Of a stretch of 64,000 bases of DNA, positions 854 through 6,986 are shown piece by piece. Origin of the DNA: Pseudomonadota bacterium (lineage in GTDB: Archaea > Thermoplasmatota > SW-10-69-26 > JACQPN01 > JAJPHT01); assembly GCA_021325135.1 (NCBI GenBank), contig JAJPHT010000045.1:68456-132455 (forward strand), read 5' to 3'. The notes beneath the pieces are model-generated. The model saw only the letters and a list, made by a program, of their open reading frames with translations, was not told the origin of the DNA and made no database searches. A program made the position numbers and the translations under genes. The first letter of the stretch is position 1, and each line of letters begins with the position of its first letter.

Positions 854-1441
854 GTGCCCGGCGTGGACGCGCGGGACGCCTGGCGCCGCAAGCACGCCCG
901 GGAGGCGGCGCCCTGGCGGGGGCCCGTCCACGCCGCGCCCCTGCTGGCGGGCCTCTCCGGCCGCGTGGTGGAGCTCGGCGCGGGCGGGGGGAAGGTGGCC
1001 GGCGCGCTGCCGGCGGAGAGCGTCGCCCTGGACTGGGCGCCGGAGGGGCTCCGCGACGCGGGGCGCCCCCGCCTGGTCGCGGACGCGCGCGCCCTCCCCT
1101 TCCGCGACGGCTCGCTGGACGCGCTGGTGGCCATCCACGTCCTGGGCCACCTCGCCGCGGCCGACCGCCCGCGCGCGCTGGCGGGGTGGGCCCGCGCGCT
1201 GCGCCCCGGCGGCGCGCTCGTGCTGGAGGTCTTCGCCCGCGGCGACGCCCGCGAAGGGGAGGGGCGCGAGGTGGAGCCGGGCACGTGGGAGCGCGGCGGC
1301 GTCGCGACGCACCACTTCTCCGAGGCCGAGCTTCGCGCGCTGCTGGCCGGGTGGCGCGGGGACCTCCTTGTGGAGGAGCGCCGCCTGAGGTGGGGGACCC
1401 GGCGGGCGCTGCGGGGCCGCTTCACCCGTCCCGCGCCTTGA
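854..1441 (+). CDS. Class I SAM-dependent methyltransferase
   Basis: VVELGAGGG motif I; ADARALPFRDGSLD; RALRPGG. Confidence 0.8.
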   Translation: MPGVDARDAWRRKHAREAAPWRGPVHAAPLLAGLSGRVVELGAGGGKVAGALPAESVALDWAPEGLRDAGRPRLVADARALPFRDGSLDALVAIHVLGHLAAADRPRALAGWARALRPGGALVLEVFARGDAREGEGREVEPGTWERGGVATHHFSEAELRALLAGWRGDLLVEERRLRWGTRRALRGRFTRPAP

Positions 1442-2585
1442 CGACGAACACGCAGGCGGGCTCGCCTTGGCTCTGGCAGCGGATCTCGCTGCCCAGCGCG
1501 TGCCCGCCGTGGCGCCGGGCGACGGTCGCCTCCAGGACTCCTAGCGCGATGTGGCACGTGGGCGTCGAGTGGCCGCGCCCGGCCTCCAGCATGTCGGTGG
1601 CGTGGAACTCGTAGCGGCCCGCCTCCTCGCGCGCGAGGGCGATGGCGCCCAGCCCCATGTCCCGCAGCGCCTGGAGCGTCGCGTCGAGGGATTGCCCTTC
1701 GAGGTCCGCCGCCAGCGTGCGCCCCAGCGCGCGGCGCGAGACGGCCGTCGCGGAGGAGCCCTCGGTCAGGGCGCGCAGGATGCCGCGCACGAGCTTGCGC
1801 GCGACCAGCTGCCGGCGCGCCTCCTCCTCGCCGCGCTTGCGCGCCGTGATGTCGCGCATGACGCCCGTGTAGCCGATGAGGTGGCCCTCGGCGTCGCGCG
1901 CGAGGTTGATGCTGACGCTCACGTCCACCAGGGAGCCGTCCTTGCGGCGGCGCTTCGTCTCGTGGTCGCGCAGCGCGCCCTCGGCCCGAAGCCGGTCCGC
2001 GAGGAGCTTCGACTCGTCGGGCAGGTCGGGAGGAAGGAGCATCTGGCCGTCCTGCCCCAGGACTTCCTCCTTGGAGTAGCCGAAGAGGCGCTCCGCGCCC
2101 GCGTTCCACGTGAGGAAGCGCCCCTGCGCGTCGATGGTCATGATGGCGTCGTCCGCGCTCTCCACGGCCAGGAGGAGCCGCGAGCGGGCGTCCTCCGCGC
2201 GGCGGCGCTCGGTGATGTCGATGCCCACCGCCAGGACGCAGGGCGCGCCCGCGACGCTCACCACGTCCAGGGAGACGATGCAGTGCCGCTGCGCGCCGTC
2301 CTTCCGGTAGAAGACCAGCTCCACGTTGCGGGCGCGCCCGTGCGCGCGCAATTGGGCCTGCACGTCCGCGCGGGGCGCCTCCCGCCACACGCCCAGGGCG
2401 TAGGCGCTGCGGCCGACGACCTCCGAGCGCTCGTAGCCCAGCATCTCCAGCATGTGCCGGTTCGCGTCCACGAAGGTCCCGTCCCCCATGCGCGTCAGGC
2501 TGATGGCCGCAGGCACCTCCTGGTAGACCAGGGGGAAGAGCGAAGCGACGTCGGGGGCGGCGGGCGGTTCGGACAAGCCGCGCAC
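1422..2585 (-). CDS. PAS-PAS-V4R domain protein
   Basis: Two PAS/PAC repeats (LGYERSEVVGR...DITERRRAE; WNAGAERLFGYSKEEVLGQ...RRKDGS...DITARKR) and a C-terminal V4R-like region (PTCH...EIRCQSQGEPACVF). Confidence 0.8.
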   Translation of the reverse strand: MRGLSEPPAAPDVASLFPLVYQEVPAAISLTRMGDGTFVDANRHMLEMLGYERSEVVGRSAYALGVWREAPRADVQAQLRAHGRARNVELVFYRKDGAQRHCIVSLDVVSVAGAPCVLAVGIDITERRRAEDARSRLLLAVESADDAIMTIDAQGRFLTWNAGAERLFGYSKEEVLGQDGQMLLPPDLPDESKLLADRLRAEGALRDHETKRRRKDGSLVDVSVSINLARDAEGHLIGYTGVMRDITARKRGEEEARRQLVARKLVRGILRALTEGSSATAVSRRALGRTLAADLEGQSLDATLQALRDMGLGAIALAREEAGRYEFHATDMLEAGRGHSTPTCHIALGVLEATVARRHGGHALGSEIRCQSQGEPACVFVVKARDG

Positions 2586-3368: not shown

Positions 3369-3418
3369 CCGCCCGGTAGGCGCCACGCTTTTGCGCCCGC
3401 CGCCCTCCGCCATGCGGC

Positions 3419-4141
3419 GTGGCGCGCGACGAGCACGGCGAATCGCCCGCGCAGGTGCGGCGCGACCTCCTCATCTCCGCGCTGGCCATCGTGAGCGTGG
3501 CCATCGGGATCTACCAGCTCGCGCACGCCAAGGAGAGCCCCGAGTTCACCTGGCTCGACGCCGTGGACCTCGGCATCGTCGCGGTCTTCATCGTGGACTT
3601 CGTCGTCCAGGCGCGCCGGTGCGGCGACTGGCGGCAATACCTCCGCTGGCACTGGTGGGAGATCCCCAGCCTGATCCCCGTGGGGGGCGCCTTCGTCACC
3701 GGCGTCCCGGGCCTCGCGATCATCCGCGGCATCCGCCTCGTGCGGCTCGTGCGCGTGCTGCGCCTCCTGCGCCTCCTGGGCCTCGTCGCGCGCTTCCGGC
3801 GCATCGGGCGCTACGTGAAGCGCGTCGTCCACCGCGCGCACCTGGGCGGCATCCTCCTCGCGGCCGCGGCGGTCGTCGCCGGGGGCGCGCTCCTGGCCTT
3901 CGCCCTGGAGTCGGACGCCAACCCGGCCTTCTCCAGCTTCGGCGACGCGCTCTGGTGGAGCCTCAACACGTTCGACAACGTCGCGTACCTGGACTTCCAG
4001 CCCGCCACCCTGGGAGGGCGCCTTCTCGCCGGCGCGCTGGAGGTGTGCGGCATCGGCTTCATCGGCGTCTTCACCGCGAGCCTCGCGGGCGCCATCCTCC
4101 AGGAGCCCAAGCCCGACGAGGAGGAAGAGGCCCGAGTGTGA
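3419..4141 (+). CDS. 6-TM voltage-gated ion channel (KvAP-like fold) with non-canonical selectivity filter
   Basis: S4 RGIRLVRLVRVLRLLR; pore helix FGDALWW; filter region TFDNVAYLDFQPAT. Confidence 0.85.
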   Translation: MARDEHGESPAQVRRDLLISALAIVSVAIGIYQLAHAKESPEFTWLDAVDLGIVAVFIVDFVVQARRCGDWRQYLRWHWWEIPSLIPVGGAFVTGVPGLAIIRGIRLVRLVRVLRLLRLLGLVARFRRIGRYVKRVVHRAHLGGILLAAAAVVAGGALLAFALESDANPAFSSFGDALWWSLNTFDNVAYLDFQPATLGGRLLAGALEVCGIGFIGVFTASLAGAILQEPKPDEEEEARV

Positions 4142-4602: not shown

Positions 4603-4653
4603 CGCGGGCCCTTGGCAAAGGCAGATAACAGGGGATCGGGCGAGCAGGGGGGC

Positions 4654-5634
4654 GTGCTCCCGGCCCAGGCCTTGGGCATCCTCGCCGCCTGCCTCGTCCT
4701 CCTGAGCGGGCTGACCGCGGCCCTTGCCTTCGCGCTCTGGAGCGGCCCGCGCAAGGCCGCGCCGCCCGGGTCCCGACCCGCGCAGGCCCCTCTGTCCTGG
4801 GGCGCGCTTCTGCGGGATGGTGCCCTCCTTTCGGCCTCGCTGGGCGTCGCGATCCTGGGCATCGCCGCCCTTTGGGGCGCCTTGTCTCTCCTGCGCTGGG
4901 CGTGGACGGGCGCGCCCGGGTGGGTCGTCCTGGGCGCCCTCGTCGCGGCGGGCGGGACCTACGCGATGCGCGAGCGACGCCGCAAGCGGGCGCGCGAGGC
5001 CGCCGAGCAGGCCGCTCGCCAGGAGGCGGAGGCGCGGCAGAAGCGCGAAGCGGCCGAAGCCGGAGCGCGCCGCGCCGAGGAGGCCCGCCAGGCCCGCGCC
5101 CGCTTCGAGGAGGAGCAGCGCCGCCGCGGGCTCGTGCCGCACGCGGGGCGCGACGGCGCCACGCGCTGGGTCGCGCCCGCCGAAGCGGAGAGCCTGGCGC
5201 GCCGCGCGGCGGCGTCCGAGGAGGAGGCGATGGTGCGCGCGTGCCTCGATGCGTTCTCCCCCTCGATGCGCCACGACCACGAGCTGCCCTACCACATGGA
5301 GCTCCTCGGGTACCTCCGCGCCAGGCTTCCCGCCGCGCTGCCGGAGGTGCAGGTGGGCTCCTCGCGGCCGGACATCGTGGTGGGCCGCATCGCCATCGAG
5401 GTCAAGGGCCCCACCGACGTGGCGGCGCTCCAGACCGTGGCGGACAAGTGCGTCCGCTACGCCCAGCACTTCGACGTGGTGATCGTCGTCCTCTTCGACG
5501 TCACCGTGGGCGAGCGCATGTACGCCGAGTGGGAGCGCGGCATCGCGAGGACGTTCCCCCAGGTCGCCCTCGTCCGCAAGGCCCCGACGCGCGGGCCCGC
5601 CTCCTTCGGGAGCTACTCGTCCCGGGTCCGCTGA
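4654..5634 (+). CDS. Membrane-anchored PD-(D/E)xK nuclease-fold protein
   Basis: Three N-terminal hydrophobic helices, an R/E/A coiled coil, then E...RPDIVVGRIAIEVKG...RY. Start is uncertain (4612 or 4654). Confidence 0.7.
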   Translation: MLPAQALGILAACLVLLSGLTAALAFALWSGPRKAAPPGSRPAQAPLSWGALLRDGALLSASLGVAILGIAALWGALSLLRWAWTGAPGWVVLGALVAAGGTYAMRERRRKRAREAAEQAARQEAEARQKREAAEAGARRAEEARQARARFEEEQRRRGLVPHAGRDGATRWVAPAEAESLARRAAASEEEAMVRACLDAFSPSMRHDHELPYHMELLGYLRARLPAALPEVQVGSSRPDIVVGRIAIEVKGPTDVAALQTVADKCVRYAQHFDVVIVVLFDVTVGERMYAEWERGIARTFPQVALVRKAPTRGPASFGSYSSRVR

Positions 5635-5714: not shown

Positions 5715-6863
5715 ATGGCCTCGCCCCGCGAAGCGGTCATCGTCGACGCGATCCGCACCCCCTTCGGCAAGCGCAACGGCTCCTTCAAGGACACGCACCC
5801 CGAGGTCCTGGGCGCCATGCCGCTGAAGGCCTTGACCGAGCGGCTGGGCCTTCGCCCCGACGAGATCGACGACGTCATCTACGGCAACGTGACCCCCGTG
5901 GGCGAGCAGGGGCTCAACATCGCGCGCAAGGTCGCGCTCCTCGCGGGCTGGGGCGACGGCGTCGCGGGCGTGCAGCTCAACCGCATGTGCGGCTCGGGCC
6001 AGCAGGCCATCAACTTCGCCGCGCAGGGCGTCATGAGCGGCGTCAACGACCTCGTGATCGCGGGCGGCGTCGAGCACATGACGCGCGTGCCCATCGGCAG
6101 CGACGCGGGCCCCGTCTCGGAGGAGCTGGCCAACCTCTACGAGATCCTCCACCAGGGCGAGAGCGCGGAGCGCATCGCCGACAAGTGGGGCTTCACGCGG
6201 GCGGACCTCGACCAGTTCGCGCTGGAGAGCCAGCACAAGTACGCCAAGGCGCGCGACGAGGGGCGCTACAAGAGCCAGATCGTCCCCGTGCGCGTGACGG
6301 TGGACGGCCAGGAGAGGATCGTCGAGGCGGACGAGCACCCGCGCCCCACCACGGCGGAGGGGCTCGCGAAGCTCAAGCCCGTCTTCCGCCCCGACAACGG
6401 GAGGATCACGGCGGGCAACAGCAGCGGCATCGTGGACGGCGCCGCCGCGGTCGTCGTCACGAGCGCGGAGAACGCGCAGCGCCGCGGCTGGAAGCCCCGC
6501 GCGCGCATCGTCGCGCAGGCCGCCGTGGGCAGCGACCCCGTGCTTATGCTCACCGGCCCCATCCCCGCCACGAGGAAGGTCCTCGCCAAGGCCAAGCTCA
6601 ACGTGGGCGACATCGACCTCTTCGAGTGCAACGAGGCGTTCGCCAGCGTCCCCCTCGCCTGGCAGAAGGACTGCGGCGTCGACCCCAGGAAGGTCAACGT
6701 CAACGGCGGCGCCATCGCCCACGGCCACCCCCTGGGCGCCACCGGCGCGGCGCTGGTCACCAAGCTCGTCAACGAGCTGGAGCGCACCGGCAAGCGCTAC
6801 GGCCTCTCCACCATGTGCATCGGGTTTGGCCAGGGCATCGCGACCATTGTGGAGCGCCTGTAA
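5715..6863 (+). CDS. Thiolase (acetyl-CoA C-acyltransferase)
   Basis: NRMCGSGQQA, NEAFA, NGGAIAHGHPLGATG, MCIGFGQG. Confidence 0.95.
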   Translation: MASPREAVIVDAIRTPFGKRNGSFKDTHPEVLGAMPLKALTERLGLRPDEIDDVIYGNVTPVGEQGLNIARKVALLAGWGDGVAGVQLNRMCGSGQQAINFAAQGVMSGVNDLVIAGGVEHMTRVPIGSDAGPVSEELANLYEILHQGESAERIADKWGFTRADLDQFALESQHKYAKARDEGRYKSQIVPVRVTVDGQERIVEADEHPRPTTAEGLAKLKPVFRPDNGRITAGNSSGIVDGAAAVVVTSAENAQRRGWKPRARIVAQAAVGSDPVLMLTGPIPATRKVLAKAKLNVGDIDLFECNEAFASVPLAWQKDCGVDPRKVNVNGGAIAHGHPLGATGAALVTKLVNELERTGKRYGLSTMCIGFGQGIATIVERL

Positions 6864-6941
6864 GCCGGTCATCCAGGCAGGTGTGGGTCCGCCGCAGCGG
6901 ACCCACGGCGCATTGCGCCGCTGGTGCGCCAGCGGTGTCGG

Positions 6942-6986
6942 ATCGGCTTCGGCCAGGGAATCGCGACGATCGTCGAGCGCCTGTAA
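6942..6986 (+). repeat. Synonymously diverged duplicate of the last 14 thiolase codons plus stop
   Basis: Encodes IGFGQGIATIVERL*, identical to 6819-6863, with 6 third-position differences. Confidence 0.9.

Follow-up and report, generated by a model that had tools for sequence, protein, structure and literature searches.

The window analysed here, a stretch of 64,000 nucleotides, carries a gene for a voltage-gated channel subunit that is flanked by an AlaX-type tRNA-editing gene and, further on, by a thiolase gene (coordinates of the channel gene and its parts are collected in Table 1). As an earlier note on this DNA had maintained, the open reading frame of the channel is intact throughout its 240 codons, and an ortholog from the same genus also begins with GTG and has an N-terminus identical to that of the window channel. 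The AlaX-type gene and the channel gene are 50 nt apart, and the sole A/T-rich spot in this gap is a C-T-T-T-T-G at 3388–3393, lying 26–31 nt before the GTG, a spacing that would suit an archaeal TATA box and a leaderless transcript. Upstream of the AlaX-type gene, on the opposite strand, a two-PAS-domain protein is encoded (1422–2585, minus strand), the C-terminus of which gave a weak, sub-threshold V4R match (27.4 bits against a cut-off of 31).

Gene surroundings were compared by all-against-all BLAST of open reading frames lying within 5 kb of the channel at 23 loci. No neighbour common across phyla was found at these 23 loci within that distance, and synteny was lineage-specific only: an AlaX-type editing gene and a methyltransferase upstream of the channel at Thermoplasmatota loci, and a large protein downstream of it at Saprospiraceae loci. 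The channel is a stand-alone gene. PADLOC returned no match for the channel itself, and an association with defence was rejected on that ground. Downstream of the channel, at 4612–5634, the window also has an open reading frame for a predicted membrane-anchored protein of 340 residues, which matched no Pfam family and gave only a weak PADLOC match, to LeoBC (E = 1e-4); a link between this frame and the channel was considered and rejected, since no counterpart lies beside the channel at any other of the 23 loci.

Table 1 The channel gene and its parts, canonical channels of the same genome, and residue counts at the positions that set the clade apart (79 clade members against 170 canonical relatives)
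Feature	Coordinates	Strand	Basis or composition
Voltage-gated channel subunit gene (240 aa, six-helix)	3419..4141	+	GTG start, TGA stop, no internal stop; ORF list and sequence
S1–S3 of the voltage sensor (residues about 10–94)	3446..3700	+	AF2 helices 10–36, 45–68, 71–94
S4, Arg every third position (R103, 106, 109, 112, 115, 118)	3716..3781	+	Read from sequence
S5 (residues 142–164), invariant Glu164 at its end	3842..3910	+	AF2 helix 142–164, pLDDT 96–98
Pore helix (residues 174–186) with W179, W180 and clade-specific Asn183 (3965–3967)	3938..3976	+	AF2 helix 174–186
Filter segment, D-N-V-A-Y-L-D for T-T-V-G-Y-G-D	3974..3994	+	Sequence; gapless KvAP alignment; column counts
S6 inner helix (residues 198–228)	4010..4102	+	AF2 helix 198–228
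Canonical TVGYGD channel, window genome (L001)	G000:C8:56225-56908
Canonical TVGYGD channel, window genome (L002)	G000:C19:34893-35327
Position 183			Asn in 78/79 clade; Asn in 0/170 canonical (Val, Thr, Ala or Ser)
Position 184			Met in 68/79 clade; Thr in 169/170 canonical
Position 185			Phe in 71/79 clade; mixed small residues in canonical
Position 187			Asn in 79/79 clade; Thr in 163/170 canonical
Position 189			Ala in 78/79 clade; Gly in 170/170 canonical
Position 191			Val or Leu in 76/79 clade; Gly in 170/170 canonical
Position 193			Phe in 72/79 clade; Ile or Val in canonical
Position 194			Gln or His in 73/79 clade; mixed in canonical
Position 208			Glu in 53/79 and Gln in 24/79 clade; Met in 152/170 canonical

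The translated gene matched the Pfam families Ion_trans (PF00520; 60.8 bits, cut-off 25) and Ion_trans_2 (PF07885; 34.8 bits, cut-off 22.5). None of the NCBIfam K+ channel equivalogs was reached, with scores of 24 bits against 300 for NF040645 (hyperpolarization-activated voltage-gated K+ channel, MVP type) and 13.6 bits against 425 for NF007828 (Kch). The best solved relatives were KvAP entries 6uwm, 2a0l and 1orq (E = 5e-18 to 2e-17), followed by Kv1.3, KCNQ, KcsA and MlotiK1. ESM Atlas returned only generic 'ion transporter' clusters and contained no model of the window protein. An AF2 model, predicted for the monomer only with the clade alignment as input and read for confidence values and secondary structure, reached a mean pLDDT of 84 (93–98 in the pore domain). 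It comprised a helix at residues 100–139 besides those in Table 1 and an 11-residue loop (187–197) between the pore helix and S6, with the S3–S4 paddle at low confidence. Foldseek placed Kv4.2, Kv1.3 and KCNQ among its best matches to this model, along with Shaker and KvAP. [quoted passage not shown]

The voltage sensor is of Kv type, with a basic residue at every third position of S4 and a charge-transfer centre composed of an acidic-x6-Phe-x2-acidic motif in S2 and an acidic residue in S3. The four residues of this centre in the window channel are Asp50, Phe57, Asp60 and Glu81, all common to canonical relatives; within the clade described below, D50 and F57 are invariant, and conservation is 90% or higher for D60 and E81. 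The same holds for the S4 arginines, each of them invariant or conserved to 90% or more; R103, R106, R115 and R118 do not vary among 71 aligned clade members, and one subclade has an S4 shorter by six residues and hence two arginines fewer.

From the turret to S6 the window channel aligns without gaps to KvAP (window channel, DALWWSLNTFDNVAYLDFQPAT; KvAP, DALWWAVVTATTVGYGDVVPAT). The filter codons read GAC AAC GTC GCG TAC CTG GAC, placing Ala189 and Leu191 where the first and second filter glycines of K+ channels would stand. The earlier note had asserted KvAP-type homology, gapless over the S4 ladder, the pore helix and the downstream D..PAT, and the loss of both filter glycines in this segment; the codons bear out the second claim, and the homology is confirmed, with a gapless alignment over the pore helix, filter and S6 (KvAP, E = 5e-18) and six arginines in S4. 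An Asp/Asn pair added to the filter, and a Glu in S6, had also been pointed out there, and these survive in part. Asn187 is invariant in the clade, while Asp186 is confined to six of its 79 members, a small subclade to which the window channel belongs (Thr or Ser is usual). Glu208 is indeed present (GAG at 4040–4042, within A-L-E-V-C-G of S6, three residues before the invariant hinge Gly211 at 4049–4051), at a position that alternates between Glu and Gln.

Three known filter classes can be set against this segment. The K+ signature T-x-G-[Y/F]-G is absent, the corresponding window residues being N-V-A-Y-L. Filters of the NaK/CNG type keep the first Gly and carry an acidic residue for Tyr, whereas the window channel has Ala189 and Tyr190. 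As for BacNav, there is no motif of the kind found there, with a pore-facing Glu/Asp ring behind a short first pore helix and with a second pore helix; the filter loop is exactly of K+ channel length, and all of the best solved relatives are K+ channels. Judged from its sequence, the window gene is a Kv/KvAP-type channel by descent and architecture that lacks the defining K+ signature.

Among 5.8 billion proteins searched, 74 clusters of closely related proteins were recovered (E = 1e-115 to 1e-39, 46–77% identity, 224–266 residues), followed by a sharp fall in significance before the canonical channels begin at E = 1e-23. All members of the first group share N-[M/V/L]-F-[T/S/D]-N-V-A-Y-[V/L]-[D/E]-F-[Q/H]-P together with L-[E/Q]-x-x-G-I-[A/G]-F-I-G, and all members of the second share T-T-V-G-Y-G-D together with Met in S6. 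An exhaustive HMMER search of 1.84 billion representatives at 50% identity yielded 7266 relatives at E ≤ 0.001 (11 at E ≤ 1e-30) and added N-V-A-Y representatives as well as a small number of looser variants, T-T-V-A-Y-S-V and T-N-V-S-Y-S-I among them. Among proteins of 467–2000 residues no fused or longer forms were found at E ≤ 1e-20, although this counts as weak evidence.

A maximum-likelihood tree was built from 69 sequences, and every glycine-free form fell on one branch (SH-aLRT 99, stem of 0.83 changes per site), with T-T-V-A-Y forms basal and T-N-V-A-Y forms with Glu or Gln in S6 nested inside. One sub-branch combines Gln208, a Trp-Phe pore helix, Leu191 and the six-residue S4 deletion. 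A look-alike, P0145, was placed among canonical channels and is accordingly regarded as an independent degenerate case. The N-V-A-Y clade is monophyletic, with members in archaea and in a number of bacterial phyla. The earlier note had proposed collecting homologs and asking whether xNVAY is conserved as a clade, and 79 relatives do keep N-V-A-Y-[V/L]-[D/E] on this branch; the opposite outcome envisaged there, with T-V-G-Y-G in close relatives and a decaying copy in the window, is excluded by the conservation of the altered filter across multiple phyla.

Nine coupled changes around the filter make up the signature of the clade (Table 1), and the altered filter is conserved as strictly as T-V-G-Y is in ordinary channels: V188 is found in 78 and Y190 in 77 of the 79 members, and Gly at positions 189 and 191 in none or one of them. 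The window channel is the sole member with Thr at position 184. Much of the remainder is unchanged relative to canonical channels, including D50, F57, D60, E81, the S4 arginines, E164 (79/79 clade members, 169/170 canonical relatives), W179, P195, T197 and the hinge G211. The spacing of 16 residues from W179 to P195 is kept in 79/79 clade members and 165/170 canonical relatives, and that from P195 to G211, also 16 residues, is kept likewise. The inner-helix stretch F-T-A-S-L-A-G-A and Gly211 are very strongly conserved in the clade. For one same-genus pair dN/dS was 0.47 overall and 0.33 around the filter, values that are only moderately low and count for little either way, given an extreme GC3 codon bias that depresses dS; the argument from conservation therefore rests on residues kept across phyla and not on dN/dS.

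Several individual sequences depart from the common pattern. One metagenomic member, P0041, keeps the first glycine (T-T-V-G-Y-L-D), and together with T-T-T-S-Y-V-D, T-N-G-A-Y-I-D and T-T-L-A-Y-S-V it forms a set of natural intermediates that could help to order the substitutions. Two members are interrupted, one by a frameshift near residue 109 (L032:6001-6695, a Planctomycetota MAG from a long-read assembly) and the other by a frameshift and a stop near residue 40 (L029:944-1622, a contig of 0.77x coverage); both interruptions are likely sequencing errors rather than true pseudogenes.

The genome to which the window belongs (3.77 Mb in 51 contigs) was recovered from a soil metagenome, and a MAG deposited as Thermoplasmata archaeon BP_742 belongs to the same genus. 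Close glycine-free relatives were present in five of the nine genomes searched in this Thermoplasmatota family, with the filters D-N-V-A-Y-L-D (window), D-N-V-A-Y-V-D, T-N-V-A-Y-L-D, T-N-G-A-Y-I-D and T-T-T-S-Y-V-D, and a sixth genome had the more distant T-T-L-A-Y-S-V. The varied filters T-T-T-S-Y-V-D, T-N-G-A-Y-I-D and T-T-L-A-Y-S-V come from loci L006, L008 and L009 (genomes G007, G004 and G008). Genomes searched from other families of the order had TVGYGD channels only. Elsewhere the clade was found in MAGs named as Verrucomicrobiota, Saprospiraceae and other Bacteroidota, Planctomycetota including Phycisphaerales, Acidobacteriota and Elusimicrobiota, so that with Thermoplasmatota six or more phyla are represented; one further MAG was labelled Halobacteriales, and there were no cultured isolates among the carriers found. 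Archaeal and bacterial sequences interleave in the tree, which fits lateral transfer.

Besides the glycine-free channel, the window genome encodes two canonical six-helix TVGYGD channels (Table 1), which are only 28–34% identical to it over the transmembrane core. One of the two lies within an open frame of 840 residues, in which at least 350 residues precede the channel domain and match no Pfam family. In another Thermoplasmatota MAG (SMAG_U14314), the end of contig DATLCC010000004.1 (L035:3-428) carries the last 45–47 channel codons, from N-V-A-Y-L-D-F-Q-P to the stop, twice in tandem about 150 nt apart, and a full-length channel copy is found on another contig (L028). This repeat, which resembles a duplicated thiolase 3′ end at 6819–6986 of the window, could be a 3′-end duplication left by an integrating element or an artefact of assembly.

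On balance, we consider it fairly probable that the product of the window gene is a working voltage-gated cation channel of the pore-loop kind, tetrameric and of KvAP-type K+ channel descent, in which the canonical four-site K+ filter has been lost and K+ selectivity weakened or changed. The clade would then probably constitute an undescribed channel type operating without the usual K+ selection. Its intact S1–S4 sensor is expected to gate the pore by membrane voltage. L-amino acids at both glycine positions would disfavour a backbone that lines up four carbonyl rings, so that the canonical four-site K+ queue presumably cannot form. The Thr of the innermost K+ site gives way to Asn187, which is invariant and stands at the pore-helix tip, and the resulting Asn ring may be the narrowest polar constriction, positioned by Glu/Gln208 and by Asn183, the near-invariant pore-helix residue predicted to lie behind the filter. 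Most members have Met in place of the Thr with which the pore helix of K+ channels contacts the filter Tyr, and the S6 residue predicted to sit beside the inner end of the filter is Glu or Gln in place of Met. Partly hydrated cations are predicted to pass through such a pore with weak or altered discrimination between K+ and Na+, the candidate preferred ions being mixed monovalent cations, Na+ or a divalent.

More tentatively, the N-V-A-Y clade may be a new selectivity class with a glycine-free Asn-ring filter that prefers Na+ or a divalent ion, derived from Kv channels independently of BacNav/Cav and passed between archaea and bacteria of the soil by gene transfer; we regard this fuller proposal as possible rather than probable.

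Continued K+ selectivity has to be weighed first among the alternatives. Asn183, Met184, Phe185 and Glu/Gln208 could compensate for what was lost, or fewer K+-preferring sites could remain. The loop length, Val188, Tyr190, Asp192, Pro195 and Thr197 are exactly as in K+ channels, and many coupled changes could be compensatory. Moreover, KcsA G77A kept its K+ preference in liposome flux assays according to work cited in PMC11251424, so that one lost glycine is in itself no proof of lost selectivity. However, in the clade both glycines and the inner Thr are replaced, and equivalent single changes cut selectivity in Shaker, BK, GIRK2, MthK and NaK2K (PMC11251424). A residue other than Gly was seen at either position in 0 of the 170 canonical relatives sampled, which would imply that K+ selectivity strictly demands glycine. 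The window genome is also already furnished with two canonical K+ channels, making the glycine-free channel look like an extra, specialised paralogue. Retained K+ selectivity is, for these reasons, unlikely in our judgement.

We likewise attach a low probability to a Ca2+/Mg2+ channel or a divalent-blocked channel, in which the Asn187 ring, Glu208 and Asp/Glu192 might serve as a high-field-strength site. Asn rings do occur in other cation pores (the N site of NMDA receptors, the GMN motif of CorA), although this is only a lead. The invariance of Asn187 at the pore helix tip agrees with such a site, as do the acidic or polar residues conserved at 192 (Asp/Glu), 164 (Glu) and 208 (Glu/Gln) and, in the window channel's own subclade, Asp186 beside Asn187. 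Against it, Gln replaces Glu at position 208 in 24 of the 79 members and Asp186 occurs in only six, leaving no conserved pore-facing carboxylate ring, and K+-selective relatives keep D192 and E164 just as strictly. The interchange of Glu and Gln at 208 makes hydrogen bonding likelier than a charged ion site, which argues somewhat against a site dedicated to divalents.

Less probable still is a non-conducting protein, either a sensor with a sealed pore domain acting in signalling or scaffolding, or a modulatory partner within tetramers formed with canonical K+ subunits. A filter devoid of glycines could be collapsed, and canonical six-helix paralogues exist in the same genome; these paralogues, however, are as divergent as noted above, and no partner gene is conserved beside the channel. 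In one Verrucomicrobia MAG (G041, possibly incomplete) the glycine-free channel is the sole Ion_trans_2 match. The whole permeation path, including Gly211 and F-T-A-S-L-A-G-A, is strongly conserved, which would be hard to explain in a sealed pore. The earlier note had offered altered selectivity (non-selective, divalent or proton) or a non-conducting or regulatory subunit as outcomes; the fully conserved voltage sensor, together with the S6 hinge and inner helix, speaks for a channel that conducts rather than for a dead subunit. Nothing except the unusual filter itself suggests a pseudogene of a decaying K+ channel or an artefact of assembly, and either is extremely improbable given an intact frame, an altered filter shared by 79 proteins from independent samples and phyla, and the synteny of the channel and AlaX-type genes across related MAGs of Thermoplasmatota. 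Hv1-like proton conduction through the sensor was also considered and set aside, as the pore domain is conserved in full and S1 lacks any conserved acidic position (L22 and S26 are invariant there).

No feature of K+ channels is conserved more strictly than the two filter glycines, for which stereochemical necessity is the usual explanation, and a natural clade with L-amino acids at both positions and all other parts of a voltage-gated channel in place offers a ready-made test of a glycine-free filter and of its choice of ion. The feature is real and conserved and should be of interest to channel biophysicists, to whom proteins of about 240 residues with no accessory domains would be convenient for expression, flux assays and cryo-EM. 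Sources annotate clade members as 'voltage-gated potassium channel' or 'ion transporter', and the former label rests on domain matches alone. A full-text literature search, covering few subscription journals, found no paper on this filter or on atypical prokaryotic Kv filters.

Among characterised channels the window channel is most readily compared with KvAP of Aeropyrum pernix (PDB 1ORQ, 2A0L, 6UWM), which matches it in six-helix layout and approximately in length, at an overall identity of about 27%. Both have an S4 arginine ladder, acidic counter-charges and S3 prolines, as well as D-A-L-W-W at the start of the pore helix, P-A-T after the filter and a glycine hinge in S6. They part at the filter, which is T-T-V-G-Y-G-D in KvAP and D/T-N-V-A-Y-V/L-D in the clade, at the pore-helix residue behind it (Val in KvAP, Asn in the clade) and in S6 (Met in KvAP, Glu/Gln in the clade).

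NaK and the CNG-type channels are non-selective tetrameric pore-loop channels with filters of the T-V-G-D-G and T-I-G-E-T kind, where partial loss of the K+ signature leaves fewer ion sites and non-selective cation conduction. They belong to the same superfamily and show what the clade channel may work like. NaK and CNG channels nevertheless keep the first filter Gly and replace the Tyr, while the clade keeps the Tyr and loses both glycines, and in sequence searches the window channel was no closer to them than to Kv channels. In KcsA the first filter glycine adopts a left-handed conformation, and reportedly (Valiyaveetil et al. 2004) D-alanine can replace it, whereas L-alanine cannot.

Engineered filters provide the closest functional parallels. 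Mutation of the first filter Gly (KcsA G77A, Shaker, BK, GIRK2) lowered conductance and K+/Na+ selectivity in most cases, with Val76 carbonyls flipped and conductance ~ 32-fold lower in KcsA G77A and PNa/PK of 0.2–0.8 in Shaker, BK and GIRK2, and replacement of the inner Thr rendered MthK (T59A) and NaK2K (T63A) non-selective; flipped Val carbonyls and co-permeation of water accompany such filter mutations (PMC11251424). Glu208 in turn aligns with the Ala of L-C-A-I-A-G-V in Kv1.3, equivalent to Shaker A463, mutation of which lowered K+/Ba2+ affinity at an inner pore site and allowed Na+ flux (Ogielska and Aldrich 1998, PMC2525752). The residue here is small and neutral in Shaker, Met in canonical prokaryotic relatives and polar or charged (Glu/Gln) in the clade. 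The positions altered in the engineered mutants (KcsA G77A/T75A, Shaker, BK, GIRK2, MthK T59A and NaK2K T63A) are thus also altered in the clade, but the former are single laboratory changes that mostly impair the channel, whereas the latter carries nine coupled natural substitutions, including that of the second Gly, whose conservation under selection implies a working alternative design.
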